Of a stretch of DNA of 54,707 nt, positions 12,944 through 44,600 are shown one piece after another. The translations under genes were made by a program, and so were the position numbers. The DNA is taken from positions 1 to 54,707 of IMG/VR virus record IMGVR_UViG_3300025809_000025; one strand, 5' to 3'. A model generated the notes under the pieces. That model worked only from the letters and a program-made list of their open reading frames with translations, was not told the DNA's origin and did not search any database. Numbering within the stretch: the stretch's first letter is position 1; each line of letters opens with the position of its first letter. This DNA comes from a virus. Its lineage: Duplodnaviria > Caudoviricetes.

Positions 12944-13402
12944 CTAGTGTAAGTCCTTGATATCGTTAGGGTCTTTAACCTCTAACTCAACCAAATCTTC
13001 CTCATCCAAGTCTAAGTCAGCCAGAAAGGAGCCATTAAACTGCACAACTTCCTGTTTCTCTGGGGCAATCCATCCCTCAGCCTTGAATAATTGCTCAATA
13101 GCCCTGAGGCGGTCAGAATCCTTCTCTGCTAGCGTTCCCAGTTGCTCCAATGCATTGATCCACTGATCCCTTCTCTGCTCTGTATCCTGTGCCATATCGT
13201 CTCTAATCGCCTCTATTGCCGCCTTTACACTAATATTTCCCAACAACCGGAATGCTTGGTGATTTGCGTGTGCATACCCTGCGTGCTCTGCCGCTCTGGT
13301 CGCATTGCCTGAAGTAACGTAGTAATCCACAAACTTTTGCTGTCTTAGGTTTAATGGCTTTACTGTTTCGGTTGGCTTTGTTGTATCTCTCTCTATGTTC
13401 AT
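12944..13402 (-). CDS. terS: Terminase small subunit
   Basis: LNLRQQKFVDYYVTSGNATRAAEHAGY...RLL..V: Terminase_2 N-terminal HTH. Confidence 0.9.
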   Translation of the reverse strand: MNIERDTTKPTETVKPLNLRQQKFVDYYVTSGNATRAAEHAGYAHANHQAFRLLGNISVKAAIEAIRDDMAQDTEQRRDQWINALEQLGTLAEKDSDRLRAIEQLFKAEGWIAPEKQEVVQFNGSFLADLDLDEEDLVELEVKDPNDIKDLH

Positions 13403-13459
13403 CTGTATGTTCCCCTATAGGAGAAGTCGGAATTGGGGGGGTTTAGGTTTTTCCCCGCG

Positions 13460-13732
13460 CTATAAAAATTTCGCGATCGCCGTGATACATGCCGCGAATA
13501 TGATCCATGCCGCTCGTTCTGCAACCATGCCCTTACCTGCTGACTTGGCAATGTCTTGCTCAACCTGCCGGATGTTGCCCTCCAACTGGTTAAGGCGCCC
13601 TTCGTGTCTGTCCAGTCGCTTGTGACTACTAACCAGTCGCTCATCTATGCGAGCCAATACAGCAACGGTATCGCTTAATTGATCAAGTTTTTGCTCGATC
13701 CTGTCGAATCTCTTCTCAATACTCAATTCCAT
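13460..13732 (-). CDS. Coiled-coil protein with C-terminal TM helix (holin/XhlA-like)
   Basis: RFDRIEQKLDQLSDTVAVLARIDERL... ending AAWIIFAACITAIAKFL. Confidence 0.6.
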   Translation of the reverse strand: MELSIEKRFDRIEQKLDQLSDTVAVLARIDERLVSSHKRLDRHEGRLNQLEGNIRQVEQDIAKSAGKGMVAERAAWIIFAACITAIAKFL

Positions 13733-13825
13733 ACCTTTTGCCGCTTTGAATGTAGGTTAATAATCTGAACGTGTTACCAATTGTAACATTTTAACTGCTT
13801 GAGTAAATTATTTTATGCTGAAGTA

Positions 13826-13854
13826 TTGACAAGCGATTCTCTAGAGATTACGGT
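13826..13854 (+). promoter_or_regulatory. Early sigma70-type promoter
   Basis: TTGACA-17 nt-TACGGT with an AT-rich upstream tract, at the strand-switch point. Confidence 0.65.
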
Positions 13855-13957
13855 GCGAACCATGAAGTGTTGATTAGACACTGATTCCGACCCAGAGGTC
13901 ATGGGGGCGCTCGGAGAATCCAAGGATGGTTTCAATGAGTGAAGCGGCAAGACCCAC

Positions 13958-14013
13958 TAAGTGTCTGCATCTACCTGATGCACTGATGAGGGCAAGCAAG
14001 CCCGAAACACTTA
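13958..14013 (+). ncRNA. Hammerhead ribozyme, type III
   Basis: UAAGUG-UC^-UGCAUC[UACCU]GAUGCA-CUGAUGA-GGGC[AAGCAA]GCCC-GAAA-CACUUA: full catalytic core and three perfect stems; GUC cleavage after 13965. Confidence 0.95.
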
Positions 14014-14031
14014 CTGCCGAGGAGGCACAGC

Positions 14032-14208
14032 ATGACCATTCAAGTATTGATTAAAAACAATTACGGAACCCAAGCCGTCTACCCTACCTGCACTGTCGGT
14101 GAAACCTTTGCACAGATCGCAGGAACCAAGACTTTGACCGATGAGACCAGAGCGCTAATGAAGAGACTGGGCTATCAATTTGAAGCCAAGATGGAGGTGT
14201 CGCTGTGA
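14032..14208 (+). CDS. Early hypothetical protein (58 aa)
   Basis: MTIQVLIKNNYGTQAVYPTCTVGETFAQIAGTKTLT...LGY; GAGGAGG RBS. Confidence 0.75.
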   Translation: MTIQVLIKNNYGTQAVYPTCTVGETFAQIAGTKTLTDETRALMKRLGYQFEAKMEVSL

Positions 14209-14309
14209 AACTATTTAAAGCGTTTATCGAGACTAACCTAGCAATCTATCTAGTTGGCGCTTGGGTGACGGTTACCGTCATCTATATCGCCTTTAGCAAC
14301 CTAGCCTGA
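14205..14309 (+). CDS. Small membrane protein (34 aa)
   Basis: GTG start overlapping the upstream TGA, GGAGG RBS; MKLFKAFIETNLAIYLVGAWVTVTVIYIAFSNLA. Confidence 0.55.
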   Translation: MKLFKAFIETNLAIYLVGAWVTVTVIYIAFSNLA

Positions 14310-14320
14310 GGAGGCTCACC

Positions 14321-14587
14321 ATGTCCCAAACATCAAGAAAGATCACCTACTTTCAACACAGCAACGGTGTTGATTTCGCTTACGAGGCAAACAACCCTGC
14401 TGATAGTTGGCTACCAGTCGTCAACTATCCGCACAGAGTCTGGGTCAGTTGCAACCCAATTAATGACTCAGGTTGGCGATATGCCAACGTTAAAAAGACT
14501 GTCGCCTATATCGTTGTCGATGAGGACGACCACGGTCAGCCAGTGATCGAGAAGTGGTCAATTAAGAATCACCGTAACTTCCATTGA
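14321..14587 (+). CDS. Early hypothetical protein
   Basis: 88 aa, strong RBS; RYANVKKTVAYIVVDEDD.G.P..EKW.I motif. Confidence 0.75.
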   Translation: MSQTSRKITYFQHSNGVDFAYEANNPADSWLPVVNYPHRVWVSCNPINDSGWRYANVKKTVAYIVVDEDDHGQPVIEKWSIKNHRNFH

Positions 14588-14660
14588 GTAAGCACTGAGA
14601 GCGCCTTCGCTGAGGGCGTTCAACTGTATTTATTCAACTCAGCCTGAGGAGGCAACCATT

Positions 14661-15530
14661 ATGAAAAAATATGACGAACTATTTGAGAAAGTAACCAACC
14701 GAATTATCCAGAACCTAGAGAGCGCTGATCGATGGCAGAAGCCGTGGGCTTCAATCGCTGACGGATCAGTACCCCATAACGCCAGTACAGGCAGACCCTA
14801 TTCTGGGATCAACTTCTTTAACCTTGGGTTTGAGTCTGAAAAGTGGGGGAACACTGGATGGCTAACCTACAAACAAGCTACCGCTCTGGGTGGCACTGTA
14901 CCCAAGAACAGCGCAGAGAATGGCGGCTGTGAGTATGTCTGGTTTATGGCTAAGTCGATCTATAAAGATAAGCAGACTGGCGATGACAAGATGGGATTTA
15001 TCAACAAGTGCTTCCCAGTATGGAATGTTGCCCAGATCGAAGGGCTAGAGGGTGGCAAGCAATACACCCCACCATCAGCGGGTACAGGTGCAGTCAACAG
15101 ACTGGCTGATAGCCTCAACATCAATCTTCAATATGGTGGTGATAAAGCTTGTTTCATCCCATCCATTGACACCATCAAGATGCCATCAGTTGATGCCTTT
15201 ACGACTGAGGCAAATCATGACGCAACCCTGCTTCATGAGATGGTCCATTGGACTGGTCACTCTGACCGACTAAAGCGCCAGATCAATAACAGCTTTGCAT
15301 CTGAAGGCTATGCCTTTGAAGAGTTAGTTGCTGAGTTAGGTGCGGCAATGGGTGGTGCTCTGTTAGGTATCCCCTACGAGGGACTGCAACACGAGTCCTA
15401 TATTAAGTCATGGCTTAAGTCTCTTAAGGATGACCCCAGACATATCGTTAAGGCGGCTAAGCAAGCGTCTAAGGCTGTTCAGTATCTAGATGAGAACGGT
15501 AGTACTGACCTATTGGAGCAGGCGGCATAA
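14661..15530 (+). CDS. ardC: ArdC-family antirestriction protein (ssDNA-binding domain + zincin metallopeptidase)
   Basis: W.KPW...P.N..TGRPYSGIN...WLTYKQA...WNVAQ N-domain; HEMVHWTGH..RLKR...YAFEELVAELG...HESYIKSWL. Confidence 0.9.
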   Translation: MKKYDELFEKVTNRIIQNLESADRWQKPWASIADGSVPHNASTGRPYSGINFFNLGFESEKWGNTGWLTYKQATALGGTVPKNSAENGGCEYVWFMAKSIYKDKQTGDDKMGFINKCFPVWNVAQIEGLEGGKQYTPPSAGTGAVNRLADSLNINLQYGGDKACFIPSIDTIKMPSVDAFTTEANHDATLLHEMVHWTGHSDRLKRQINNSFASEGYAFEELVAELGAAMGGALLGIPYEGLQHESYIKSWLKSLKDDPRHIVKAAKQASKAVQYLDENGSTDLLEQAA

Positions 15531-15564
15531 GGGTGAAAGATTTATTTTCCCCGACTCAAAAAAT

Positions 15565-15622
15565 TCTAGCTGATGAGCAACTGGATGGTGACCAGTCGAA
15601 ACGCCCAGTGGGGCGTCCTAGA
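15565..15622 (+). ncRNA. Hammerhead ribozyme, type I
   Basis: UCUAG-CUGAUGA-G(CA)ACUGG[AUGGUGA]CCAGUC-GAAA-CGCCC[AGUG]GGGCG-UC^-CUAGA: full core; GUC cleavage after 15617. Confidence 0.93.
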
Positions 15623-15650
15623 TAACCAACAATCCTGAGGAGGATTAAAT

Positions 15651-15956
15651 ATGCAAAAAGCACACTTGCACCTCATTAAATGGGGCTTAGAAAAAGGATA
15701 CACAATTGAGGTTGATATTGAAGGTCATCATGAGTATCGCGGTACTAGCTACAAGGAAGCAAAGGAAGCCAGTGAAGCCGGAGATATGGGCTGTATATAT
15801 CTTATCACTGGTCAAGCCGAAACAGACTACTCCTACTTTGGCTATATGCACGAGTGGAAGCAAAATCCTGATGAAATAATCTATGACTACGGTCTTGATG
15901 CTGTCTCTGAAGAATGGGCGCGTGATTACGATAAGCATTGCGAGGTTGCGGAATGA
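15651..15956 (+). CDS. Early hypothetical protein
   Basis: 101-aa acidic ORF with GAGGAGG RBS. Confidence 0.75.
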   Translation: MQKAHLHLIKWGLEKGYTIEVDIEGHHEYRGTSYKEAKEASEAGDMGCIYLITGQAETDYSYFGYMHEWKQNPDEIIYDYGLDAVSEEWARDYDKHCEVAE

Positions 15957-16222
15957 AGTCTACCACCAAGCGAATTGATGAAGCTAAAAGTCGTATCGAA
16001 CAAGCTAGCGATGAGATTGATCGAGCCAAAGAGGCAATAATATTGTTCGTCCTCGTAAATCGAAACCGAAAACGAGTTGCTGAATTGTCAGGCGTACACC
16101 TAAACACAGTGTCTGATTTTGTCAGCGGTCGGAGAGGCGGCATACGTCTAGACACCTTGATCAAGATCGAAAAAGCTTGCCACGTCATCAAAGAGAGTCC
16201 GTTTTTTATGCCGAAGAGTTAG
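15953..16222 (+). CDS. XRE/Cro-type HTH protein
   Basis: KRVAELSGVHLNTVSDFVSGR....RLDTLIKIEKA; ATGA overlap start at 15953. Confidence 0.75.
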   Translation: MKSTTKRIDEAKSRIEQASDEIDRAKEAIILFVLVNRNRKRVAELSGVHLNTVSDFVSGRRGGIRLDTLIKIEKACHVIKESPFFMPKS

Positions 16223-16307
16223 TCGGAGTAAACAGCAGGGAGCTACCTGAATGGTAGTTTCTTAGTGTTAATTCCAACACTACAACTAATCCTGAGGAGG
16301 ATTAATC

Positions 16308-16475
16308 ATGGAAACAATTGATGCAACGCCAACATGGCAAGAAACAGCAGTAATGCTTACGCAGATACTGGAATCGGGCAGTGACAAGTCTTGGGCACGC
16401 GATGAGATTATTCGAATGGGCAAGATCATTGATCAACAGCAGGCATTCATTAAGCAGTCAAAGGAGGTGGCGTGA
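16308..16475 (+). CDS. Early hypothetical protein (55 aa)
   Basis: METIDATPTWQETAVMLTQILESG...EIIRMGKIID; GAGGAGG RBS. Confidence 0.7.
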   Translation: METIDATPTWQETAVMLTQILESGSDKSWARDEIIRMGKIIDQQQAFIKQSKEVA

Positions 16476-16765
16476 TGGAAGTTTCAAAGAAGCGTCATCA
16501 AGAAATAATTAACCTAGCTAACACGCTATCAAACGATGATTTATGTACTTTGATTAATGCGGTTAGTAGTAGGTTAGAAGTTTACTTAGGCACAATCGGC
16601 TTAGTGTGTATTTCAACTGAGGTTGAATACGCTCACATGAACGGTATGACAGTACAAGTCAATACCACAATGGCTCAGCTGGATGATATGCGTGAAGACG
16701 ATCAGATCCAACATGCAATGAAAATGTATGAGCTGCGTAATCCAGAAAAGGAGGTGGCGCGATGA
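16472..16765 (+). CDS. Early hypothetical protein
   Basis: 97 aa, AGGAGGT RBS, coupled to both neighbours. Confidence 0.7.
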   Translation: MMEVSKKRHQEIINLANTLSNDDLCTLINAVSSRLEVYLGTIGLVCISTEVEYAHMNGMTVQVNTTMAQLDDMREDDQIQHAMKMYELRNPEKEVAR

Positions 16766-17142
16766 GAGATTCAACTTATATGATCGACCTTAACGTCGTT
16801 ACCTTCGATGCATTCTGCAAGCTAGATGCGCTAGACGAAACCTTTATAGGCACCCCCGATTATATGGGGGTTGCTTACTTTTGGGGTCATGGAGTGAAGC
16901 ATTACCTTCGAGAAGCTTCTCAAGCACAGAGACGTAGAATCCATAAAAAATGGCTTGAACAAGGACTTGATCTGTACGACGACAGTGACGACCACTTTAG
17001 AGTTATAGGTGAAGTGATGCCGCGCTATCGTCAAGAGATACAGAACAGTCTGAAGGTCAACGGCTTTGAAAAGCACCGTGTACCCGAATGGAACAGGGTC
17101 AAGTTTGGAAACAATCCACCAGTGACAGCGGAGGTAGCGTAA
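16762..17142 (+). CDS. Early hypothetical protein
   Basis: 126 aa, AGGAGGT RBS, ATGA overlap. Confidence 0.7.
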   Translation: MRDSTYMIDLNVVTFDAFCKLDALDETFIGTPDYMGVAYFWGHGVKHYLREASQAQRRRIHKKWLEQGLDLYDDSDDHFRVIGEVMPRYRQEIQNSLKVNGFEKHRVPEWNRVKFGNNPPVTAEVA

Positions 17143-17321
17143 TGAACAAATTTAAATGTGAGCAATGCGACTTCTTTGGCAATGATGATGAAATTGTCAT
17201 TGTTAAAGAGGTTGATATGGAACCATACGGAGACAGAAAGGTTGAAAGGGCAAGCTACTACTATCACTGCCCAGACTGCAACTCTGACGACCTCACAGAA
17301 TACGCTGAGGTGAATTGGTAA
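17142..17321 (+). CDS. Small Zn-ribbon protein
   Basis: MNKFKCEQC...CPDCNSDDL; TAATG overlap, GGAGGT RBS. Confidence 0.7.
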   Translation: MNKFKCEQCDFFGNDDEIVIVKEVDMEPYGDRKVERASYYYHCPDCNSDDLTEYAEVNW

Positions 17322-17418
17322 ACCCCGAAATTGCGCTAAGGATGGCGCTCTTTTTCGTTAGTTTTTCAGGTGCAACCCGAGGGTTGTATCTAATGAACTA
17401 ATCAAAGAGGAAAGCAAC

Positions 17419-17757
17419 ATGTTTTTATTTAAAGAAACGCTAGAACACGCAGGCATGGCAGACACCAGAACACAGAAGCTTGCCGAAGCACTCAACTTAC
17501 TGCACTCAGCTATATCGCAGTGCGATCTAGGCAACAGAAAAATCTTTGCGGACAACTTCCCTTACGCTGTTAGGTCTGCCGTCGAGTACGCAAAGATAGA
17601 GGAGCTAAATCAAGACTTGTGGGGGATTAGCGCACTGGATCGATACCGACAAGACACTGAGCTTGCAGAGTGGATCTCTGAATACTCAGAGTATGAAGAC
17701 AGCATCCAGACTCATCCAATTAGAGATAATGTATTCGATATGGGAGACTACCGATGA
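17419..17757 (+). CDS. Hypothetical protein
   Basis: 112 aa, GAGG RBS downstream of a long hairpin. Confidence 0.65.
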   Translation: MFLFKETLEHAGMADTRTQKLAEALNLLHSAISQCDLGNRKIFADNFPYAVRSAVEYAKIEELNQDLWGISALDRYRQDTELAEWISEYSEYEDSIQTHPIRDNVFDMGDYR

Positions 17758-17885
17758 TTATTGAAATCATTTTTACAATTGTATTTTTTTCCGCAATGGC
17801 TGTGCTTTTAAGTGGAGCTTTTCTAATCGTTCAGGACAAAGAAAGACAATACCAAGAGAGAAGGAATCAACGTGACAACAAATGA
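17754..17885 (+). CDS. Small membrane protein (43 aa)
   Basis: MIIEIIFTIVFFSAMAVLLSGAFLIVQDKERQYQERR...; ATGA overlap, GGAG RBS. Confidence 0.6.
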   Translation: MIIEIIFTIVFFSAMAVLLSGAFLIVQDKERQYQERRNQRDNK

Positions 17886-18063
17886 AGAACTGCAACACCT
17901 TATGCGAAAGCACAATCTGTCTCAGACTGATGTTTCAAAAATGCTAGAGATTCCCTTGGACACTGTAAAAAACTACAGCCGAACCGCTAACCGTAGTAGA
18001 GTGCCCAAGGTAGTCATAATAGCTTTGCGTTTGAGTATTCAACTAAGAGACAAAACGGAATGA
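17872..18063 (+). CDS. XRE-family HTH protein
   Basis: LMRKHNLSQTDVSKMLEIPLDTVKNY....VP. Confidence 0.7.
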   Translation: MTTNEELQHLMRKHNLSQTDVSKMLEIPLDTVKNYSRTANRSRVPKVVIIALRLSIQLRDKTE

Positions 18064-18439
18064 GAAAGACCCACTTTGGATGCCGGTCCTGAGGACCATG
18101 AATTTGGACCGGCTCCATCCCTTCAAGCAAGATACATTCAAGTATCCCCTCCCTGCTAAACCAATACTCCCCCTTACCTGTATCAATCACCCAGAAATCA
18201 GCTAGCGACACGCTGAATGCAGACGGCTTGTTGTGGTAGTACTCGACCACAATGTTGCCTGTCTTTTGCGACATCGGATCGTACTTAACCTCAACAGTTT
18301 TACCTATCTCAGGAATCTCAATATCCCAGTCGGGATGATACCCCTCAGCCTTCCTAGCTTGAGGGAATACCAATCTCAACCGATCAAGTAAGTTACGCTC
18401 AATCGCCTCGCCTCGAATGAGGTCTTTAGCGAATCCCAT
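18014..18439 (-). CDS. PD-(D/E)XK nuclease-like protein
   Basis: GEAIE...WDIE......VEVKYD...TGNIVVEY motifs. Confidence 0.65.
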   Translation of the reverse strand: MGFAKDLIRGEAIERNLLDRLRLVFPQARKAEGYHPDWDIEIPEIGKTVEVKYDPMSQKTGNIVVEYYHNKPSAFSVSLADFWVIDTGKGEYWFSREGILECILLEGMEPVQIHGPQDRHPKWVFLIPFCLLVEYSNAKLL

Positions 18440-26243: not shown

Positions 26244-27185
26244 ATGTCTCTGTTCATGGAGACGAATATGAAGCTAACATTTAAAGAAATAACTGATCGC
26301 TATCTTCTGCAACCAACAGATCATAACGATGAGAAGCAGAGAACCACGGTCATAGTGGCTAATAACCTTGTTAAGGTGTTTGGCTCTAAGCCGATAAAGT
26401 CTTTCGAGAAGATCGCTCTAATCGATAACTTTATAGAGAATCTGCGAGTACAACCATCTAGGAGGAATATAGGTCACAGAGTCAGCAACAGCTGGGTAAA
26501 CAAGCACATCATAACTGTGCGTGCCATTCTTAACTATGCTTATAGCAAAGAGCATATCCAAAGAGTGCCGAAGTTGTCGGTGTATCCTGAAAAGAAAAGC
26601 AAAGTTTTCCTAAAGCCAGAGCAGGTTCTAAAACTTATAGATAGCTTAGATGACTTAAGAGCAAGCATGGTTAGGTTTGGTGTAGCAACTGGGCTACGCA
26701 AATCAAACATAAGGCTTCTGAAGTGGGATCAAATAGAGCCAGATTTTTCAGCTCTACTTGTTGACGGTGATGATGCCAAGATGGGTGAAGAGATTCGCAT
26801 ACCTCTGAACAGTGATGCTCAGAAAGTTTTGCGGGAAAGGAAAGCCATCAACGATTCTTTAATTAAGAAACATAAGTACCTTAACAACGGAATCGATTAT
26901 GTGTTTGTGCAACAAGTAGGTGGAGGTACTAAGGTGGGCAAAGTTCTGGGTGAGATCACTAATCGCACTTGGAGAAATGCTTGTAACAAAGCAGGAATGC
27001 CAGCCAAGACAACCTTCCATACTATGCGTCACACATTCGCCAGCTGGCACATTGAGAACGGGACGAGCGAGATGATTCTTATGGAGTTAGGGGGGTGGAA
27101 AGATCGTACTTCATTGCAACGATATGCCCATTTAAACCAAGCCCAAAGACAGGTCGCATCGTCAAATATTGAAGGAATAATTTAA
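26244..27185 (+). CDS. int: Tyrosine integrase (start may be 26268)
   Basis: ATGLRKSNI..LKW, FHTMRHTFASW, ELGGW, RYAH catalytic motifs; adjacent to a tRNA fragment. Confidence 0.92.
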   Translation: MSLFMETNMKLTFKEITDRYLLQPTDHNDEKQRTTVIVANNLVKVFGSKPIKSFEKIALIDNFIENLRVQPSRRNIGHRVSNSWVNKHIITVRAILNYAYSKEHIQRVPKLSVYPEKKSKVFLKPEQVLKLIDSLDDLRASMVRFGVATGLRKSNIRLLKWDQIEPDFSALLVDGDDAKMGEEIRIPLNSDAQKVLRERKAINDSLIKKHKYLNNGIDYVFVQQVGGGTKVGKVLGEITNRTWRNACNKAGMPAKTTFHTMRHTFASWHIENGTSEMILMELGGWKDRTSLQRYAHLNQAQRQVASSNIEGII

Positions 27186-27208: not shown

Positions 27209-27322
27209 TAACCTATTGATAAATAAAGAAATGGTGCCGGAAAGAGGACTTGAACCTCCGACCAATTGCTTACGAAGCAACTGCTTTATACTATTTTTTT
27301 ATTCAATTAAATCAATAACTTA
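27209..27322. mobile_element. attP: 3' half of tRNA-Thr(CGT) (27232-27285, minus strand) flanked by IHF sites
   Basis: Minus strand GTTGC-TTCGTAA-GCAAT anticodon arm, GGAGG-TTCAAGT-CCTCT T-arm, TTCCGGC-A-CCA end; no D-arm or 5' acceptor strand. IHF consensus WATCAANNNNTTR at 27209-27221 (minus) and 27310-27322 (plus). Confidence 0.88.
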
Positions 27323-29722: not shown

Positions 29723-32700
29723 TTAGTCCCTAATTCCCTTCTCTGCCTTTCGATACATCTTGTTGTACAGGTCAAATATCTTGTTCTCATTCTCGAGCAG
29801 CTTGTCCAATAGTTCTCTGCGACGCTCCTCTGGAATATCCTGACGCTCTACCAACTTACGAGTCTTGGAGATATTTCTTAAATCTCGGTTAGACATCTTG
29901 TATAGGCTGTTACGTCCTCCCTCAATTACGGGTATGAACGATTGATACTTATTTCTAAGCTGAACTAACTCGCCTTGATCTCCAGCCTCAACAGCATCTT
30001 TTAGTTTTGCCTCTATCTTTCTAGATTCATCCCAGTTGGCATAGAACTCAAATCGATCTTCGTACTCCGAAGGGCTTTCAAAGAATGTTCCGACAATAGG
30101 TAGGTCTTGCTTTCTAAAATCTTCGTCAGCCATCATTCTTGCCGAAACATCTGAAGACTGACTTACAAAGCGACCTACGCCCCCAAGGAAGTACTCATAT
30201 ACATACTCCATCTTGTCTGGGTTCATAGATACAAACCCGTCGGTGTACTTATCCCCGCCTGTAGCATCGTTAAGGAACTCAGCAGCGGCAGTGAATGCTT
30301 TATCTGTAGATCTTCTAGAGTTGTAAGCGTTAGATCGCTCAACAATAAACGGATTCTGCTCAATGTATATGTCGCTGCCAAAGAAGTTCTTGTTAGCCAG
30401 CATGTCTAAGTGAACCTCTAGAAGGTCAGGATAGAATCCTCGCATCTGTTCTTCCCAGCTATCGCCACTGGACGGTGCAACAGGAACAAAGTTTAGAAGT
30501 AAGTTTTCCCATAAGTACAATGCGGACTCCTCTGGAGTGTTGACCCCAAAAGACATTTCGACACCCAGTCTGCCTATGTTGGTAAAGAAGTTGTAACCAT
30601 ATGAAGCAGGCAAAGCGAAGCCTTCGTCACTGTTATACATAAACAATAATGAACGGTTCTTCGCATGCTCAGGCAAATCTGCATAAACCTTCTCATCATC
30701 ATCATCATCATCAGACATAAGAATATTAATGGCGGCTAATGTACCGCCCAAAGCAATCAGACCAGCAGCAGTTTTTTGTGCCGTTGTGGCTTTTCCTGTA
30801 TCACTACTTAGAGCTTGAGCTATGTTTACGTTACCCTGTACCGCAGCATTGAAGAACAAGAATCCTGCATTGACTACTGCGGTGTTCTCACCCTTACGAT
30901 TAAAGTTTACTGTAAGATCTTTTGCTAAAGTTGCAGCTGTTTCTCTGTCAGTTCCAGCTTTTCTTGCCTCAACATATGCAGATAAACGTACAGAGTTTTC
31001 CATTGTGGTATTGAAATCTTCGACCCACTTACCGATAGCTCTCAACGCTTCTCTCGTATAACCTTTCTTTAATTTACTTTTAAGAATTCTTAGCTGTTCG
31101 TCTTGGTCACGAACTAGCATCATGCCTGTGGATGCACCGTCTTCCATAAACTCTGATGCGTACTGATCTAATGTATTTTCTCGAACAGGCTTACCGCGCA
31201 TTACGCGATACATAGATCTCATAGAGGGAAGATAACTCGCAGCCATCTTGCCGATCAGGTTCTCACCCTGAACTCTACTGCCGAGCTTGTCCTTAGATGA
31301 CAGGGCATACATAAGACCAGTCTGAACATCTCGCAACGGGTTAACTAGTCCCCATGAGGGGTTATAGTTTATTAGCATGTTACGTCTAAATGTCTGGAAC
31401 CTAGTTGCTAGGGTTAGCACTTTGCTTACGTCATCGTTAGCTCTGCTTAGCATAGGCACACTCATGTTCTGTAGTGCGTGATTTAAGCTGTCGCTTCTGA
31501 ACTCAATAAAGAATGTCTGACCACCCTTCTTCACCTCTACGTACTTAGGATCGCCATTAGGTCTGATATCCCTAGACATCTGATCAAGATCTTGCATGGT
31601 CAGTTCATCGCTAGGCTTAGGTGGTCTAAACTTATTGTTGTATATCGTGTATGAGTCGCTGTTACCTAGATTGCTTAGAAGGTCTAACAAGGTTTGGGCG
31701 GTTTCATTTTTTCTCGCTCGAATAATTTTTCTCTGCACATCTTCAATGGCGGTAAACAGCGGGTTTACAGGCAATGTCTTTCTGCCTTTAGCCTTCATGC
31801 TCTCGCTACCTACAATAGAGAACCCTCTTGAAGACGAGCTGCGAACGTACTTATCTCCATCTTCCTCAGCGGCAAAACCTTTTAAAGGAACGTAAAACTC
31901 ATAAGTGTCCTCCCAGTCAGCTTTTGATTCACCATCAAGCAAACCGGATTCAACCATGCGATCTCTCTGGAACTGAAGCATTTCGTATACTTTGCCGGCA
32001 ATACGATCCATGTCGGCTTTAGTGCCTTCTCTCTCAGCTAAATTTAAAACGCTTTCAGCTTCAGCATATGTCATGCCAGAACCAGTATCTTGAAATTGAA
32101 GTGGCAAGGTTTTGTATGACTGCAATTTTTCTTGCAGGTTAGCTATCTGAACGGTGTGATCTACCTCAACATCCTCTTGCAGTTTTTCTATCTGGCGCTC
32201 AGTTCGTAAAATGTTGCGCTCTCGTTGAGCTTTTACTTTCTCAGCAATCACGTCATTACGCTCTGCCGCGTGTTTAGCGATAAGGTATATGCCGACAGAA
32301 TCTGGATCGACTTTTAGCTCAGCTATAAGGTCGCCCAAAGGGTCAACGTAATTTTCATGGAAGGCATCAAGATCATTTTGAATCTTGCCATGCGACAAGT
32401 TTTCTTGATCTCTAGCTGATAAGCCAGCCGGAAGTCTACCCTTATCAAGAAAGTCTGCCGCTTGGTTTTCGAAATCTTCTAGGGGAGCGTAACGATCTAC
32501 TAACGACCTATATATCTTCTTGCCTTTAAGTCTTCTAGCAAGATCGGACTGTCCGTCTATTTCGTCGTTGTAGCTAAATCGATTTGTTGAGGGGGTGCCA
32601 TCGTCAAGAGTATTATTCTTGGCGTTGTTAATCTTCTTCTTTACGAAGGAAACTTCTTCTGGGGGTGAGTCTAACTCTTGTCTGGAGACATCGGTGTCGG

Positions 32701-35700
32701 GCTGACTTTGAAGAGTTCCTTCAAAAGCATATTCCCTTTGAGTCGCTTTTCTTCCAGCGTTTTCTTTGAGGATTTCGTCAAGTCTTTCTCTGTTGACTCC
32801 TTCTGCTTCATACCACGGGAATCCTTTGTCATATGTACTTACCTTAAAGTTTTTAGGTAAAACCCCTGCTTTTGGTTTTTTTATCTCATTCAAAAAATTT
32901 CTAAATTCATCGCGAGACAAGCGATAGGGTTCGCCCTTAGAATCATTATATATGAAATAAGGCTCTCCCGCCTCATCTCTTGCGTAGATGGCTCCATAAG
33001 CAAACGTGTTTTGCTTTCCCTCTGGAGCACCCATAAAGGCATATGGGTCGGCATTACCCTCCATGTCTTTTACAATTCCTTGCATGGTTGGGTGAGCTAC
33101 TACCTGTCCTGAGTTTAATACCCAGCTCTCCCAATGATAGCGTCCGACAGAAGCGTCTTCCGGTCTACCAATAGCTTCGTACAACTGACCGACTTTTAAT
33201 GCTAGCGACTTCTCCATAACTTCATATCTAGCAACACCGTGAAGCCCATTAAACTCGTCAGCTATATCATCATAAATAAGCTTTCCGTAACGACCAGAAT
33301 CCCACATTGTGTTTAGCTGTATTCTATCCAAGATAACTACATCATCACGACCAGTCATCAGCATAAGAAATGAAAACACTTTGTTATCAATTCCTGCGTT
33401 CTCAAGCATACCCTGAAATTGTCGGCGCACTTCACTGGTTGGTGTGGATCTATCTTCAATAAGATTGTGCAGCTTTTGAAGCTTGGACACACCCTGCTCA
33501 TCAACCTCTGAAAGCTTTATCATTAGCGAGCCAAATGCATTTGCGTTAGAAGTTCCTCCCTTACCAAAAGATCCTTGAGGTATTAGGTTTGGTACTTTGT
33601 TGCGCCATTCTGCCAGATCATCCTGCGTCACGTTTCCTTGCAAAGCTTTTTCTGAAAGCTCTGACACAGCATTGTTTTTGGTTAATAAGTCTACAAAGGC
33701 GGCTTCTTGCGAACTTGCCGTTAACATGCGAGATAACATTCCCCAAAGCATTAGCTTAGAGGTATGTTCCGGCAAAGCGTTTCCGCTACCGTAAAGCTCT
33801 CCCATCTTATATGCTGTTTGTAGCCCTCTGTCTGCTGCCTCTATTTGCTCTTTAGTTAATCTAGAGTGCGTCTTAGCCCAGAGATCTATGTCGTTATATA
33901 AAGCTATTAACCCGTGCGGCGGTCTAAGAGTTTCATTGCTGCCGGTCAAATCTCGTTCAAATGCCAGCCAACTATCGACTGAGCCTAAAGCATCTGGGTG
34001 TCGATCAACTAACTCTTTTAATAATGGCAGCTGAGCATCAGCATTCTTGGGACTAATTACTTTTGTGATCGCAGAGTTTGGCTTTCCCTTTGCAGATTTT
34101 TCCCTAACATCACCCTCAGAAGTCTGTAGTAAATACTCTGCACCCTTCTTAATAAAGTTAAGGTCGTCAAGATCTGCCGCAGTATCGTCTAGCTGCTTCT
34201 CCTGAACATATTCATAAGAAAGGTAATTGCCGTCTTCGAGTACTACTACATCTTCTGCATCATCTTTTTCAGACAAGATTGACTGCTTAAGGTTTTCAAA
34301 CTGGTTGTCTTCGAGAGATTTAAACTTTGTACGTAACTGCTTTTCAGTTACCGCACCCTTGTCCTGAATAAAGTCCCACGCTTTAAACTCTGTATCTCTC
34401 CCCACATTTGGATCTAAAGGGGTGTTAAAGGAATTTTTTCCCTCCGCAAATAATTTTTCGCGGTGATCAATGATTGTCTGAAGAGCCTCTTTTTTTGTCG
34501 TGCCAAGATAATCATCAAAAATCTTTCCGTCAATAGACTGATAATAAACGCCTTCGCCACCAGAGTTTCTGTCATTAGGCAATGCACCAAACTCTGCATC
34601 AGCCGCATCCTCGTCAAAGTAGACTTGATAGCGATCACCATCAGAAAAAGTGACAGTAAGCGTTCCAGTGTCTTCCCAGTTCTCAGCCTTCTTAAATGCA
34701 GGTTTTTTGGCAGATAAATTTATCGTTACAGGGGTATCTTCAGTAGACTTTATATTGATCAGTTTTGAGACATCGGTTTCTTTACGAAGATCTATGCTTC
34801 CAGACAGGTAACCCCCGCTATATATTCCTCCACGAGAATCACTGTTATCGTCTAGCTTGTAGCTTAAACCGTTTTTATTCTGGTAGCCGTCTCTATAACC
34901 CGCAACATAGTTCTTGCGGTTTCTTTCTGTGTAGTAGCCGTTTTTAGTGCCGAGATCGCCCTGAGCCGCAGTGTAAAGGCGATTACCTCGTTCCGTTTGC
35001 TCAGAAACGGTGAGTCCTTTTACGCTAGGCTTTTGTACATCTGATCGTTCACGTTGCCCAGCTTCTTCTTGGACCTGTCCCGCCACTGAGGTATCGGCTC
35101 TCCCGTCTCCAGTGCTTGCTTCGCCATCTCGTCCAGCTGATTCAGGCTGTACGACCTCGACGCTTCTGGACTCTGGCGGTGCCCGAACTTCTCCTGATAT
35201 GCCTTCAGGTTGGGAGGTGTCTGGGGTGCTGATACTAGTCGGCGCTTCATCGTTTACCTCTACTGCTTGTGCAGTCTGTAAGTTATTGTCTCTTATTTCT
35301 TTTATATAATTATACGCCTGCGGTGCAAGCTCTTGTAGTTCTTTTGGGTTAGAGTGAAACAGCGCTCCTAGCTGAGCGAACACTTCCTCTCTCATTGTTG
35401 AATTTACTTTGGCGTTATCCTTTTCAGGATCTAATATGTGAGCCTGAAGATCGTTAAATGGGTAATCAAATCGCTTACCTAATGCAGACCCTTGCTCCCA
35501 GTTGTCGTAGATCTCCTCCATGATGTCACCCATAACCACTGTAGGCTCATCAATAGATTCGTCAATCTGTATACCAAACCGGCTATCTTTATCACTAAGC
35601 CCCATGGAGAAGTCAGCAGCATGATAGATCTCGTGAGTCATCGTCCAAGCCAACTCACCTAACACGTCTTGATCTGTCATAGATCCGTTAATTAAATCTT

Positions 35701-37654
35701 CATTGACAGATATGCCTCTAGTCTGTTTTCCTGTAAGAGCTGGCGCATCTATCTCAGCTTCCTTATGGACGTAAACGCCTGACACCTGATCCATAAACGA
35801 TGTAGGAACACCGTTCGCAGACAGGTCAGCCATAACACCAGCTAGGGTATTTGTCGCATCTTCCGCACGATCACCATAAGCCTCGTCTATAGTAGGAAGA
35901 CTTTTTCCTTTAGGCTTTTGCGTAGTTGGAATTTGAATTGAGTCGTTGCGATCAAAGATTCTATCAATGTCATCTTGATCTATAGCCTCTACAATAACAT
36001 CGGTATTGTTAGGGTCTAATGCTTCTGGGCTATTAGCCTTTACTGATAAATCTAATAACTGTTCTTGTACTGGTTTTTGAGCTGGAGATATTTCTGCATC
36101 CCACCTATGGTCAGATCCAAACTCTCTCTTACCTTGGGGTACAGCTCTTCCTCCAAACATGGGAGATGAGGGGAAGTCTGTGACTATATCTGCCTGAGGA
36201 GCTTGAGGGGATGGGGGTAATGTGTTTTCCCCGAACTCTTTATTTTCTTGATCAACCGCAACTTTAGTAACCTGAAGCGGGTCAGCTTTAGCGTCAACCT
36301 CAGGAACTTCAATCTGAGTCCCGTCATAATCTGTCAGCTCAGATAGCCCAGCTTCTCTACGCTCTGCGTTTGATAAAGGAGGGTTGTCATCAAGGAATGA
36401 GGTGTCACCAACATCTATAGTAGTTCGACCATTTCTTGCATTATTTTCTGCTTCAGAAAACATCTCTTTTATTCGAAGAGCAAACTCAGGGTCATTTACT
36501 GACCTTGTTCGAACCTCTTTAGCGTCGTCGCCTAACTTAACATCTTGACTATAACCGCCGGTCGCACCCTTAAAAGCACCACCTACTGAACCAGTAACGC
36601 CACCAAATAAAAACCCAGCTGCTGCGGATTCTATTAAGGCTCCGCGCTTTCTTTCATTACTTAAATAATCAAAGTATTCTCTTTGTTCATTATCGCTGTA
36701 GTTGTTGTTGACATAAGATATTATCTCTTCCTCAACAATTAACTGTAACGCTTCGGTGCCACCCTCTACTCCCATCTGAGTTGTTGCGTCTTTTACAAAC
36801 TGACCAACCCATGCAGGTTTATCATTGACAGCTCCTGAAATAAACTCACCAACCTCATCCGCTTTTCCTTTAGGCAAAAACTTATTGAGTGCTGTAAAAG
36901 CAGGGATCGCATTTAAAGCACCTATTGTTAAACCAGAAACAGCAGCTGCGACTGGCGCTTCTTCGCCTGTCTCTTCTAGCGTTCTGGAGAACGTGCTAGA
37001 CGCTCCCTGCTGTGTTCCATAAAGAACTGCCCCAGCAGTTGCGCCTCTAGTCGTTAACTTTGCAACTTTATCTGCTGCAAATTTATCCGCCATGTTTCTT
37101 GCAATCTTATCTGCCGCTTGTTTTTCGAGACCTTCCTTAAGTAAACGGTCTGAAGCTTGTTGAGCCAGCGTGTCCGCCATCTCTCCAACGCCCTTCTTTA
37201 CAGCCTGCTTTGTTACTAATCCACCAACTCCACCTGTAGCCGCCATTCCGGCTAAATCCGGAACAACTGAACCCAAGGTATAGGCAGCCCATGCACCAAA
37301 GTCTGTAGCGCTGTCTATATCTTGAAAGGTTACGTCAGGGGCGTACTGCTCTGCTTCTTTGGTTTGCTCTTGGTAGTATTCAATACCTTCAGTAACCATC
37401 TCCTCATCGCCAATTACAGATCCAGTCAAAGCCTTTAGCCCTCCGCCGAGAGCCTGCATGTTATCGACACCACCTTTTAGACCGCGAACGAAATTACCGT
37501 CAACCTCTGGAGCTGCGGCTAAAGTTGGATCGAGTTCTGGAGATGAATCAGGCTGACCCTCAGCAGGCTGAAGGTTGTTGTCTTCTTCTAGTAAAGCATC
37601 TCGGGCTGCGTAGTACTCGCTCTTAGAGAACTGAGTTACAGACTTTAACGGCAT
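29723..37654 (-). CDS. Giant internal virion / DNA-ejection protein (large polyvalent protein with LPD38-like C-terminus)
   Basis: 2643 aa; Gly/Ala-rich N-terminal ejection region (EGGTEALQ); HEIYH zincin motif; C-terminal N.LRD.QT...EN..RLSAY...AKDLTVNFNRKG...FLFFNAAVQG...NKNFFG..I pattern. Confidence 0.8.
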   Translation of the reverse strand: MPLKSVTQFSKSEYYAARDALLEEDNNLQPAEGQPDSSPELDPTLAAAPEVDGNFVRGLKGGVDNMQALGGGLKALTGSVIGDEEMVTEGIEYYQEQTKEAEQYAPDVTFQDIDSATDFGAWAAYTLGSVVPDLAGMAATGGVGGLVTKQAVKKGVGEMADTLAQQASDRLLKEGLEKQAADKIARNMADKFAADKVAKLTTRGATAGAVLYGTQQGASSTFSRTLEETGEEAPVAAAVSGLTIGALNAIPAFTALNKFLPKGKADEVGEFISGAVNDKPAWVGQFVKDATTQMGVEGGTEALQLIVEEEIISYVNNNYSDNEQREYFDYLSNERKRGALIESAAAGFLFGGVTGSVGGAFKGATGGYSQDVKLGDDAKEVRTRSVNDPEFALRIKEMFSEAENNARNGRTTIDVGDTSFLDDNPPLSNAERREAGLSELTDYDGTQIEVPEVDAKADPLQVTKVAVDQENKEFGENTLPPSPQAPQADIVTDFPSSPMFGGRAVPQGKREFGSDHRWDAEISPAQKPVQEQLLDLSVKANSPEALDPNNTDVIVEAIDQDDIDRIFDRNDSIQIPTTQKPKGKSLPTIDEAYGDRAEDATNTLAGVMADLSANGVPTSFMDQVSGVYVHKEAEIDAPALTGKQTRGISVNEDLINGSMTDQDVLGELAWTMTHEIYHAADFSMGLSDKDSRFGIQIDESIDEPTVVMGDIMEEIYDNWEQGSALGKRFDYPFNDLQAHILDPEKDNAKVNSTMREEVFAQLGALFHSNPKELQELAPQAYNYIKEIRDNNLQTAQAVEVNDEAPTSISTPDTSQPEGISGEVRAPPESRSVEVVQPESAGRDGEASTGDGRADTSVAGQVQEEAGQRERSDVQKPSVKGLTVSEQTERGNRLYTAAQGDLGTKNGYYTERNRKNYVAGYRDGYQNKNGLSYKLDDNSDSRGGIYSGGYLSGSIDLRKETDVSKLINIKSTEDTPVTINLSAKKPAFKKAENWEDTGTLTVTFSDGDRYQVYFDEDAADAEFGALPNDRNSGGEGVYYQSIDGKIFDDYLGTTKKEALQTIIDHREKLFAEGKNSFNTPLDPNVGRDTEFKAWDFIQDKGAVTEKQLRTKFKSLEDNQFENLKQSILSEKDDAEDVVVLEDGNYLSYEYVQEKQLDDTAADLDDLNFIKKGAEYLLQTSEGDVREKSAKGKPNSAITKVISPKNADAQLPLLKELVDRHPDALGSVDSWLAFERDLTGSNETLRPPHGLIALYNDIDLWAKTHSRLTKEQIEAADRGLQTAYKMGELYGSGNALPEHTSKLMLWGMLSRMLTASSQEAAFVDLLTKNNAVSELSEKALQGNVTQDDLAEWRNKVPNLIPQGSFGKGGTSNANAFGSLMIKLSEVDEQGVSKLQKLHNLIEDRSTPTSEVRRQFQGMLENAGIDNKVFSFLMLMTGRDDVVILDRIQLNTMWDSGRYGKLIYDDIADEFNGLHGVARYEVMEKSLALKVGQLYEAIGRPEDASVGRYHWESWVLNSGQVVAHPTMQGIVKDMEGNADPYAFMGAPEGKQNTFAYGAIYARDEAGEPYFIYNDSKGEPYRLSRDEFRNFLNEIKKPKAGVLPKNFKVSTYDKGFPWYEAEGVNRERLDEILKENAGRKATQREYAFEGTLQSQPDTDVSRQELDSPPEEVSFVKKKINNAKNNTLDDGTPSTNRFSYNDEIDGQSDLARRLKGKKIYRSLVDRYAPLEDFENQAADFLDKGRLPAGLSARDQENLSHGKIQNDLDAFHENYVDPLGDLIAELKVDPDSVGIYLIAKHAAERNDVIAEKVKAQRERNILRTERQIEKLQEDVEVDHTVQIANLQEKLQSYKTLPLQFQDTGSGMTYAEAESVLNLAEREGTKADMDRIAGKVYEMLQFQRDRMVESGLLDGESKADWEDTYEFYVPLKGFAAEEDGDKYVRSSSSRGFSIVGSESMKAKGRKTLPVNPLFTAIEDVQRKIIRARKNETAQTLLDLLSNLGNSDSYTIYNNKFRPPKPSDELTMQDLDQMSRDIRPNGDPKYVEVKKGGQTFFIEFRSDSLNHALQNMSVPMLSRANDDVSKVLTLATRFQTFRRNMLINYNPSWGLVNPLRDVQTGLMYALSSKDKLGSRVQGENLIGKMAASYLPSMRSMYRVMRGKPVRENTLDQYASEFMEDGASTGMMLVRDQDEQLRILKSKLKKGYTREALRAIGKWVEDFNTTMENSVRLSAYVEARKAGTDRETAATLAKDLTVNFNRKGENTAVVNAGFLFFNAAVQGNVNIAQALSSDTGKATTAQKTAAGLIALGGTLAAINILMSDDDDDDEKVYADLPEHAKNRSLLFMYNSDEGFALPASYGYNFFTNIGRLGVEMSFGVNTPEESALYLWENLLLNFVPVAPSSGDSWEEQMRGFYPDLLEVHLDMLANKNFFGSDIYIEQNPFIVERSNAYNSRRSTDKAFTAAAEFLNDATGGDKYTDGFVSMNPDKMEYVYEYFLGGVGRFVSQSSDVSARMMADEDFRKQDLPIVGTFFESPSEYEDRFEFYANWDESRKIEAKLKDAVEAGDQGELVQLRNKYQSFIPVIEGGRNSLYKMSNRDLRNISKTRKLVERQDIPEERRRELLDKLLENENKIFDLYNKMYRKAEKGIRD

Positions 37655-41329: not shown

Positions 41330-41677
41330 TTACGCTTTGGGGTAGGAGTCTTTTACTTCTTTTATTGCTGTAAAGAACTCACCTGTTTCATTAAGTGTGC
41401 CGTTGTCTATATCGTGAAACAGTTTGTCTAACTGATTTGCAATGCTTGGGTAAGTTAATGCCCTAGACTCTGCGTATGTAGGCTCTGGAGCTGTTGCCGT
41501 AACATACTGAATTACTGTTCCAAACTCGTCATCAACAACATAATCTACTTCATCTCTTGGCAACCTATCCGGAGCTGGTGCATACGCATACCATCCTGAC
41601 TGGTCCTTCATGCCTGCTTGTGGACCTGCCGTTATGCGTCCCTCACCTGTATCAAATTGAACATAAAGTTGTGTCAT
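41330..41677 (-). CDS. Tail-fibre-associated protein
   Basis: Y...R...YPSI..QLD.L.HDI..G.....G.F...IK.VK..YPK C-terminal motif. Confidence 0.65.
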   Translation of the reverse strand: MTQLYVQFDTGEGRITAGPQAGMKDQSGWYAYAPAPDRLPRDEVDYVVDDEFGTVIQYVTATAPEPTYAESRALTYPSIANQLDKLFHDIDNGTLNETGEFFTAIKEVKDSYPKA

Positions 41678-44600
41678 TATCGTAGGCTCATAGCTATGCC
41701 TTCTAAGGCGTAAATTTTATCCATCACCCAATTTTTGTATGGCTGGCTGCTTGGAACGTAGTACTTGTTCGCGTTGTAAACTCCAATCCTAATTTCAAAA
41801 TCAACAGCTGAGCTTGTCTTGGTGCCAAGACCGCCACTAATAGAGAACTGATATGGGTGGTAGTCAGACGCAGACCTGAAGAAAAAGTCATTAACCATAG
41901 TGTACTGATTGGTCAGGATCTGTCCGAACACAGACATGTTTGTGGTGATTGTTGATGTTGACGCTCTTGTGTAATAAATTCGAGTTCTATCTGTTGATGA
42001 CGTATAGCCGCTGGATGATGTGTTGCCGTAGGTGTAGCCCATTACCAGTAATGCAGATCCCGAAGAGACAAGGGATGTTACATCTCCAGCCACTTCAAAC
42101 CAGTAGATAATATAACCAAAGCCGTAATTTTGAGATCCGTGATTGGTTACAGTCCCTAGAGAAGGAGTAGAACTTGATGTGTCGTTTGTTTTCATCCATA
42201 GCTCTAATCTGTAGGCGTCGTCATTCTCAAACACACCCCAACCTTCCGCACTGATGTAAGCTCTTTTCTCTACACCGTCCGCCTGAGCAGGAATTTGACC
42301 TGTGAATATGACTTGCTCTGCTCCGTTAGGTGCATCAATTGCTACCGCCGAAGATAGAGAGAACGGAATCAGATCATTGATATCACCAGTTATTTGGTCA
42401 GCTCTTAGGTTCTCTACTGTTATGTTGGCAGCGTTTATTGTTCCTGAGGTTATCTTGTTAGCTGATATGTCACCTAAGGTTAGTGTGGGAACACCATTAA
42501 CAACCTGCGACGTAAGGAATACACCGTCAATGTTAAGGAGGGAGGTTGATATTTTTCCGCCCGAAATTCTATTTGCGTTTAACTGACCCGTAATGTTTGC
42601 AGTATCAATTGTAGCGTTGCCAATCTGTGCTGTAGTAATCGTACCGTTCTTAATGAACGCACCATCCATATAAACACCGGCAGGGACAATAACATTACCG
42701 TTCTCATCTTCTATATCCTCACCTTCAACCGTGAACGGAACTAAAACCTGAGTGTCATTTATGGGCTCGTTTGAAACTTGAGTCGAAGTCGTCTGAGGAT
42801 TTACGATGGCGAACCGATCAGCCCTAACAATAAATGCAGAGGTTGGTGTTCCGTCATCATTGCTCGTGTTAGACAACCCGAATCCGGCTATATGTCCTTG
42901 GTTGTCTACTTTTACGGAGTACTGTGATGAAAGTCCTGTCTCAGAATCTCCAACAATTTCCTGAGTAGTTTCAATAGCGGCTTTAATTCCGCTTGTTCCA
43001 TCTTCACCATTAACAACTACCTGAAGCGTGTCAATTTTACTTGCGCCAGTCTGGTCTGTCTCAGACCCAAATACCTCTAGATTTATTTTTGACGCAAAGT
43101 CAGCTCCAGCTAATAAGACAGCGTTATCTGGATTACCTTGATCCCAAAGTGCTGCTGATAACTGCGAAACTCTAGATGCATTACTATCACCATTCGGAAA
43201 CACTTCGGTCTGTACTTTGTCAAAAGCCTCGGACGTAGCCAGCTTTAATGTCCCTGACGTATCACTATTAACAAACATAGATGACGCTATGTTATCGACC
43301 TTATCAACCAACGCTCCACTGTTGTTTACCGTCGCATTAAGAGTCCCAAATTGAGCGGCTGTTGCCAAAGCTAGCTGCTCGTTACCATTAGAATCTGTGT
43401 CATAAAGAACCGCTCTTAAACCATCGATTCTAGAAGCTGAAACATTTCCATCGGGACCAAAAACCTCTGTTTGTAATGTTGAAAATGCGTCAGCATCCGC
43501 AAGCTTCACATTATTATTTTCATCAAATACGGCTGAACTGAGAGCGTCTATTTTAGAAGCTCCTGCCTGAGGGGTTACACCCTCACCGTACACGCTAGTG
43601 TTTAATACGGACACAGCACCGGAGGTTGCGGTAAGACCTGTTGTTGGATTTGTTATTGTCGCATCTAACGTGTCTATTCGAGATGAAGTCGCACCAGAAG
43701 GCGTTACTCCATTGCCCCAAACCTCAGTTTCTAACAGAGATAAGGCTCCGGCGCCTGCTAACTTAACATTGCCCCCAGAATCAAACATCGCATTATTTAA
43801 ATCAACCACATCCGACTGAACCGACGTAACAAGACCTGAAGGGGGATCAGTAGAGTCATCGTAAATAGCTGTTACTTTGTTGCTAAGAGCACCTAGAGCG
43901 CTGCCTGTAGCAAGTCTTGAGGTATCGTTAGCATTAAATACCTCAGCATCTAGGCTGGTTACTTTTTCCTGTATGGCGCTAATTTGAGTAACCGCGTCTG
44001 GGTCATTGGGGTTGTATATTGCAGTTACGTTATTAGTTAACCCGTCTAGCGCATCTACTGTAGCTAACTTAACCTGATTGCCATTAAATACCGCACCTTC
44101 CAATGCTGTAGATCTACCTTGTAGCGACTTAACCGCAGACGCTTCATTAGGGTTATCTGGATTATAGATAGCCTCAATGCTAGTTGTTAAACCATCAATG
44201 GAATTTTGCGTTGCTAATTGAACAACTCCTTCAGAATCAAAGACTGCTGACTCAAGATCAGTTACATCGCTTTGAATTGTTTTAACAAGTGATACTGCGT
44301 CTGGATCGTCAGGGTTATAGATAGCTTCAACAGATGTAGTAAGACCGGACAATGCAGAAGTAGTAGCAAGTAAAACATTTCCGCTAGAATCAAAAACGGA
44401 GTTATTTAAATCAGTTATGTCATCCTGAACAGACTTAACAACACTAGCATTTCCGCCATCATAGATTGCAGTAACACTATTGGACACTGTATTTAAAGCA
44501 GAACCTGTAGCTAATCTTGCAGACCCATCTGAATTAAATACTTCTCCTTCTAATGAAGTAATATCAGACTGAATTGTTTTTACAACAGACACTTCACTAG

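Follow-up and report, generated by a model that had tools for sequence, protein, structure and literature searches.

The window, the whole stretch of 54,707 b that was analysed, is a complete virus record (CheckV 100%) and encodes a terminase, a portal/adaptor, a major head protein, an internal virion protein and tail fibre proteins, together with a primase-helicase, a RecE-like exonuclease, a Sak-like annealing protein and an integrase. Two giant ORFs were also found on the minus strand, one of 2643 aa (29723-37654) matching only PHROGs of unknown function and one of 2028 aa (41677-47763) matching tail fibre families. A tRNA-Thr(CGU)-like 3' fragment ending in CCA (27241-27295, minus strand; anticodon read by eye) adjoins the integrase gene (26244-27185, plus strand) and is probably the attachment site; the integrase and this fragment mark the phage as temperate. 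A 38-nt stretch of the fragment is identical in 23 contigs, all of them from metagenome-assembled genomes, with the labels Pseudomonadales, Azotimanducaceae, Gammaproteobacteria and, for one, Proteobacteria. The 24 sequencing runs listed for the DNA are marine metagenomes, with small shares in RNA libraries. The phage is therefore probably temperate, with marine Pseudomonadales as its hosts. A blastn search of 14600-16300 against deposited phage genomes gave no match.

A rightward early operon, from about 13958 to at least 16475, is probably transcribed as one RNA. No sigma-70-like promoter was found on the plus strand of 13300-18300, and the missing promoter-like sites lend weak support to co-transcription; both the operon structure and the 'early' timing are deduced solely from gene content and from this absence. 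The features of the region are as follows.

13958..14013, plus strand: type III hammerhead, leader of the operon's first gene; predicted cut between 13965 and 13966
14017-14028, 14306-14317, 14644-14655, 15631-15646 and 16287-16304, plus strand: SD hairpins
14586..14645, plus strand: element C, copy 1, from the stop of ORF 14321-14587 to the SD hairpin of ardC
14661..15530, plus strand: ardC gene, 289 aa (Pfam MPTase-PolyVal 3.5e-40, ArdcN 1.5e-20)
15531..15552, plus strand: post-stop hairpin GGG-U-GAAAG / UUUUC-CCC, directly after the ardC stop (RNAfold)
15553..15564: A-rich linker between the post-stop hairpin and the ribozyme
15565..15628, plus strand: type I hammerhead
15631..15646, plus strand: SD hairpin of the 101-aa gene, AAUCC-UGAGGA-GGAUU (sequence, RNAfold)
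15651..15956, plus strand: downstream ORF, 101 aa, with homologues in 39 viral loci
16227..16273 (about), plus strand: element C, copy 2, a second sequence variant between an HTH gene and ORF 16308-16475 (read by eye)

The 101-aa ORF belongs to no Pfam or PHROG family. The SD hairpins have the form N-CC-(U)GAGGA-GG-N', with GAGGA in the loop, and within the window this form occurs only at five genes of the hammerhead-bearing operon (13958-16475). The first flanking pair is formed at 93% of 67 distinct sites; with shuffled partners the mean falls to 43% and the highest value is 58%. All four Watson-Crick pair types were seen at this pair. It should also be noted that a possible 34-codon hydrophobic ORF, read by eye only, may lie at about 14205-14309 on the plus strand; its GTG overlaps the stop of ORF 14032-14208 and its TGA lies inside the next SD motif.

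The type I hammerhead behind ardC

A complete type I hammerhead can be read directly from the plus strand at 15565-15622. The end given in the earlier note was too short, since loop II (15586-89) pairs with ACCA at 15625-28 in a pseudoknot and the ribozyme therefore extends 6 nt further, to 15628. Its parts are listed below.

15565..15569, plus strand: stem I, 5' strand UCUAG, pairing with CUAGA 15618-22
15570..15576, plus strand: catalytic core C3-A9, CUGAUGA
15577..15597, plus strand: stem II and loop II AUGGUGA (15585-91), with G10.1-C11.1, a 2-nt CA bulge and 5 bp
15598..15601, plus strand: core G12 A13 A14 (15598-600) and A15.1 (15601)
15602..15615, plus strand: stem III hairpin, CGCCC 15602-06 / GGGCG 15611-15, loop AGUG
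15616..15617, plus strand: U16.1 and C17, with the predicted cut between 15617 and 15618 from the hammerhead consensus
15618..15622, plus strand: stem I, 3' strand CUAGA, the predicted 5' end of the downstream RNA once cut
15625..15628, plus strand: ACCA, 3' strand of the pseudoknot, partner of UGGU 15586-15589 in loop II

Within stem II, G15577 pairs with C15597 and ACUGG (15580-84) with CCAGU (15592-96), leaving C15578 and A15579 bulged. The core is canonical throughout (C3-A9, G12-A14, A15.1-U16.1, C17 and G10.1-C11.1), with A15.1 at 15601 paired to U16.1 at 15616. Also present are the three helices, of which stems II and III are closed by loops and stem I is open, a residue other than G at position 17, a paired 10.1-11.1 and, in the pseudoknot, a tertiary contact between stem I and the stem II region. 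As C17 is 15617, cleavage is predicted between 15617 and 15618, and the earlier note had correctly placed this cut 33 nt upstream of ATG 15651 and 13 nt upstream of the SD hairpin at 15631-46. The note's placing of a type I hammerhead in the gap from ardC to the following gene is borne out by the sequence, by the covariation described below and by the Pfam match of ArdC.

A descriptor scan of both strands found 15565-15622 to be the sole type I site in the window, and 300 dinucleotide-preserving shuffles of the window gave no type I match. An Rfam search of the whole window returned nothing at the gathering thresholds and only the tRNA-like fragment at E <= 0.5. When the full models were aligned in a local E-value search, the window copy scored 20.8 bits with RF00163 (Hammerhead_1; cut-off 34), and over 15530-15622 it scored 27.1 bits with RF03152 (RAGATH-1 hammerhead; cut-off 56.3); with scores under the cut-offs, standard annotation would miss it. 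In 12 related loci one hammerhead passes RF00163 (L014:4876-4935 at 36.7 bits; related loci are given here by L numbers), five others reach 29.3-33.5 bits, under the cut-off of 34, and no relative is listed for RF03152 at E <= 0.01. The sub-threshold RF00163 score is a matter of fit to the model and not of missing hammerhead features, and at the Rfam cut-offs most copies of this hammerhead subfamily, which is widespread in marine phages, go undetected. The type III ribozyme gave only a partial weak match to HH9, and its relatives score 36-37 bits with Hammerhead_3 against a cut-off of 48.5.

Folding of the window copy as a single sequence was unexceptional (z = -1.53), a value that is not informative. 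In a 130-nt context (15531-15660, RNAfold) the minimum-energy fold is 1.5 kcal/mol more stable than the hammerhead fold, with the pseudoknot uncounted. The four RNA-library runs compared (X18-X21) consist of contigs, which cannot show RNA ends. One contig of X19 covers 15615-15823; it is ~99% identical downstream and has 13 extra letters upstream that make a different stem III. Its start lies within the ribozyme, 16 nt upstream of the cut, and the contig so says nothing for or against cleavage.

Related copies and their surroundings

Viral contigs were searched twice for related loci, which gave 21 that encode an ArdC relative and 39 that encode a relative of the 101-aa protein. The descriptor scan detected many type I hammerheads in these loci, on the coding strand only, and 32 distinct copies were aligned (alignment A1). 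The proportion of paired cells in A1 is 94.2%, against 30-42% in controls with slid partners, and double changes occur in 18 of the 22 pairs. All five pairs of stem I covary and four of the six pairs of stem III are compensated; the descriptor itself forces pairing in these two stems, so the independent evidence comes from stem II, the pseudoknot and RNAalifold. Stem II, which was not used for selection, has 90.5% of cells paired and five of six pairs compensated, the pseudoknot, likewise not used, has 87.5% of cells paired and double changes in four of five pairs, and RNAalifold predicts the three-way junction without structure input. The core columns C3-A9 are invariant except N7, as are G12-A14 and A15.1; A15.1-U16.1 is A-U in 32/32 copies and 10.1-11.1 is G-C in 29/32. 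Covariation in homologous regions, one of the checks proposed in the earlier note, is seen in all three stems and the pseudoknot.

A covariance model built from A1 (R1) found 54 full-length copies in 61 sources, 40 of them distinct (E <= 1.3e-13), as well as one copy in L003 that is cut by the contig end. All R1 matches lie on the plus (coding) strand of the oriented loci, and the window copy, at 77.8 bits, is the sole match in the window. A wider viral search, with a pattern in which only 'WAAC', the core, the stem I 3' strand and the pairs closing stems II and III were fixed, gave 118 further viral stretches with 102 distinct hammerheads. In 99 of these hammerheads all five positions of the 5' strand of stem I, which this pattern leaves unconstrained, are paired; in the other three, four of the five are. 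The variable pseudoknot pair was G-C in 43 copies, A-U in 34, G.U in 1 and A.C in 0, that is, Watson-Crick or wobble in 78/78 parsed copies; this count omits 24 of the 102, which the loop rule did not parse. The type I subfamily pattern had no match in 185,579 representative genomes, so that this route led to neither a prophage copy nor a host.

Whole related records carry 6, 7, 2, 7 and 3 type I copies, and in the three records with 6-7 copies these are clustered within about 4.1-4.5 kb on one strand. The window phage has one copy against up to seven in its relatives, which implies that the type I element is dispensable at most junctions. Near-identical paralogues within one genome (L014:3923 and L014:4249) suggest that the type I element spread by duplication or cassette exchange. 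Several copies depart from the consensus core: U3-A8 replaces C3-G8 in L004:3039 and L007:3404, an extra A follows A6 twice in L027, U10.1-U11.1 occurs with A17 in L009:4718, and L008:4931 has C at position 4. The bulge in stem II beside the core pair is 0-2 nt long in the relatives and 2 nt in the window. An insertion of ~60 nt in stem III was observed in L004:4074-4202 and L006:2651-2779, and the family model still gives 60 bits.

A GGAGG-type SD and a start codon follow the cut at 23-52 nt in 53 of the 54 copies, and at 23-38 nt in 50 of these 53, with a few of the distances off by some nucleotides because the start codon was assigned by a simple rule. Upstream, 35/54 copies start -9 to +19 nt from the nearest upstream ORF end (ORFs >= 40 aa), in some cases with the stop codon TAG inside stem I, and 12/54, the window's among them, begin 33-48 nt past the ORF end, behind a G-rich hairpin. 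Of the remaining copies, six lie about 200 nt from an ORF end and one has no ORF call. The cassette boundaries reach the last codons before the stop, with GCGGCAUAG and the hairpin recurring behind different genes.

The post-stop hairpin of the window is weaker than the G-run/C-run hairpin at the same place in the relatives. In L009:3377-3420 and L013:2891-2940 a post-stop G-rich hairpin was observed without a hammerhead, with a U-run behind it and the SD hairpin immediately after that. Its occurrence alone in these two loci indicates a separate, optional module, and the hairpin with its U-run looks like an intrinsic terminator or attenuator module. The G-rich hairpin was also considered as an anti-SD element, but no convincing complementarity to GAGGAGG was seen by eye.

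The type I hammerhead lies directly 3' of ardC in 8 of the 20 loci that hold the ardC 3' end (L003-L007, L014, L015 and L020). In five others (L009-L013) it lies about 210 nt beyond ardC, past an extra small ORF, and after ardC it is absent from L008, L018 and five distant ArdC loci. Six different genes follow the hammerhead (in the window, L004, L005/L006, L007, L014 and L015), and none of the 39 loci with a homologue of the 101-aa gene has an R1 match just upstream of that homologue, 14 of them having also been read by eye. As far as the compared loci go, the hammerhead tracks the ardC 3' end and not the downstream gene. The cassette that precedes ardC is type III in L003 and L006, type I in L009-L014 and L016, and element C in the window and L005; in L003 and L006 the type III hammerhead and the type I hammerhead enclose ardC and no other gene. 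A literature search found nothing linking hammerheads with ArdC, the co-mentions concerning human ribozymes or methods.

The window carries two intergenic hammerheads on the plus strand. The type III hammerhead is present in 7/21 ArdC loci (L003-L008 and L016), and an alignment of seven sequences (the window and six loci, L008 being left out as an exact duplicate of L007) gave the type III fold with RNAalifold and three compensated pairs. The descriptor scan and the alignment agree with the earlier note that this first ribozyme differs from the second in topology and sequence. The note had argued from this for independent recruitment instead of duplication; separate lineages are indeed indicated, but both ribozymes were inherited with the relatives and not recruited by this phage. 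Type I and type III form separate cassette families, both of them common to the relatives.

Probable processing of the early transcript

Taken together, 15565-15628 is probably a self-cleaving, pseudoknotted type I hammerhead that processes the early operon RNA of a temperate marine phage. The ribozyme would be transcribed with the operon and stabilised by its 4-bp pseudoknot, which pairs loop II with the bases just past stem I, and once folded it would cut the polycistronic RNA after C15617. The upstream RNA, carrying ardC, would then end in the post-stop hairpin and stems II and III with a 2',3'-cyclic phosphate, and a 5'-OH would begin the downstream RNA, whose 33-nt leader would hold the SD hairpin of the 101-aa gene. 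The new short-leader mRNA that the earlier note had predicted is plausible on this arrangement and fits the conserved cut-to-start distance. A 5'-OH gives RNase E poor access for 5'-end-dependent decay. The ribozyme is one copy of a multi-copy intergenic cassette family that separates many small early genes in the relatives, and its role is probably host-independent processing into single- or few-gene mRNAs, each with its own stability and translation rate.

It is possible, if rather doubtful, that the selected role of cleavage is to form and protect the 3' end of the ardC mRNA and not to make a new downstream leader. The hairpin and hammerhead stay with the last ardC codons while the downstream gene changes among six genes, the counts of 8/20 behind ardC and 0/39 before the 101-aa homologues point the same way, and the type I topology leaves the ribozyme body on the upstream product. 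Against this, the cut-to-start distance is kept as tightly as the distance to the upstream stop and the cassette always ends in an SD hairpin, although the two roles do not exclude each other. The recurrence of the same cassettes beside unrelated genes, with boundaries that include the last codons (GCGGCAUAG and the hairpin), the near-identical paralogues of L014 and the different stem III of the RNA-library contig that is ~99% identical downstream could also be read as signs that the cassettes are mainly conserved linkers, kept as recombination homology or by selfish spread, with cleavage of little consequence. This seems improbable, as the compensatory changes in all stems and the pseudoknot and the invariant core show selection on a folded, active RNA and not on DNA identity alone.

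The predicted cuts at 13965/13966 and 15617/15618 bracket ardC and three small ORFs, and the type III and type I hammerheads could in principle excise a 1652-nt RNA, ending in a 5'-OH and a 2',3'-cyclic phosphate, that a host RtcB-type ligase would ligate or circularise; in L003 and L006 ardC alone is enclosed in this way. Ligation or circular products were raised as a possibility by Perreault et al. (PMC3088659), where it is also stated, as data not shown, that no such product was detected; with no sign here of complementary ends or of a ligase, such an excision is highly improbable. Just as little credence is given to a chance match or an inactive relic: the Rfam scores below the cut-offs, the weakened post-stop hairpin and the core variants of some relatives are the points in its favour, and they are set against 0/300 shuffles with a match, a fully canonical core in the window and strong covariation.

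The preferred reading, a processing ribozyme, has close precedents, and the window ribozyme is an ordinary member of a class already known between phage genes. The account of Perreault et al. (2011; PMC3088659) describes clustered prophage hammerheads that flank single genes or short gene blocks and proposes that they process long phage transcripts, with cleavage shown in vitro for fragments of about 2 kb and in vivo for a cluster flanking ardA. It also puts the share of hammerheads with a pseudoknot between stems I and II at about 40%, and documents the natural variants U3-A8, A6a and U10.1-U11.1, of which U3-A8-type covariants are active and A6a has low activity (PMC3088659). Those clusters and the present system share several intergenic hammerheads on the coding strand, and the three core variants recur in the relatives of the window. 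They differ in that the neighbour is ardC here and ardA there and that the host here is probably a marine Pseudomonadales, and the present family has a fixed 5-bp stem I, a stem II bulge of 0-2 nt and a conserved SD hairpin right after the ribozyme. HHphage of the haloviruses HF1/HF2, for which a 5' end was mapped within 3 nt of the cut (PMC3088659), has core insertions and an archaeal high-salt context, whereas the core of the window ribozyme is canonical.

With RF00163 the window ribozyme shares the core and the open-stem-I topology, its score lying under the cut-off. In the Rfam alignment RF03152 has an upstream hairpin, an A-rich linker and behind them a type I hammerhead whose stem I is 5 bp long, with a consensus (ucuua / uaaga) that resembles UCUAG / CUAGA of the window; the upstream hairpin is aligned at the post-stop site of the window, where a linker follows. 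The window scores 27.1 bits against the cut-off of 56.3, and its family differs in the hairpin, which is of another kind and optional. The RAGATH-1 hammerhead was reportedly described by Weinberg et al. in 2015.

The purpose of bacterial and phage hammerheads was still listed as open in a 2019 NAR review (PMC6765202). The type I family does not change this picture, but it offers a clean natural system for asking what hammerheads do, being multi-copy and strongly covarying, with a simple pseudoknot and a fixed distance to a ribosome-binding hairpin, beside an anti-restriction gene.

Element C and the slots it shares with hammerheads

Element C is a two-tier hairpin without hammerhead features that extends from a stop codon (motif AGUAAGCAC) and stops short of an SD hairpin. 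Across 11 distinct examples the two-tier fold is kept and 6 of 16 predicted pairs are compensated; it corresponds to no family in Rfam. Besides the two copies of the window, it was located at the following positions in related loci.

L004:908-967 and L004:1649-1709: element C
L005:2420-2479: element C
L006:2202-2263: element C
L007:2058-2114: element C
L016:2016-2072: element C
L027:1368-1436 and L027:2426-2488: element C
L031:755-825 and L031:2026-2088: element C

At two slots, one in front of ardC and one in front of the 101-aa gene (the latter in L027 and L031), element C takes the place of a hammerhead. The slots alternate among type I, type III and a non-ribozyme hairpin, a natural swap design that could show whether the selected function is cleavage, 3'-end protection or leader formation, and it is these slot-sharing cassettes that merit bench work.

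Element C may be a nuclease processing site or a terminator-like stabiliser, and may, with less likelihood, be a new ribozyme. In phage T7 the early polycistronic mRNA is cut between genes by the host RNase III, which leaves hairpins at the 3' ends. The T7 sites are a functional analogue of the hammerheads, with the difference that T7 uses a host enzyme and the hammerhead needs none; by analogy, element C might be the enzyme-dependent counterpart. A broader reading, in which the early operon is built of interchangeable cassettes ending in SD hairpins (type I, type III and element C) and element C is possibly self-cleaving as well, is decidedly improbable. In a wide scan with a loose IUPAC pattern, 1 of the 116 stretches returned resembled a true copy of element C. 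An RNA-library contig of another phage shares just 68 nt with the window, and these are element C.
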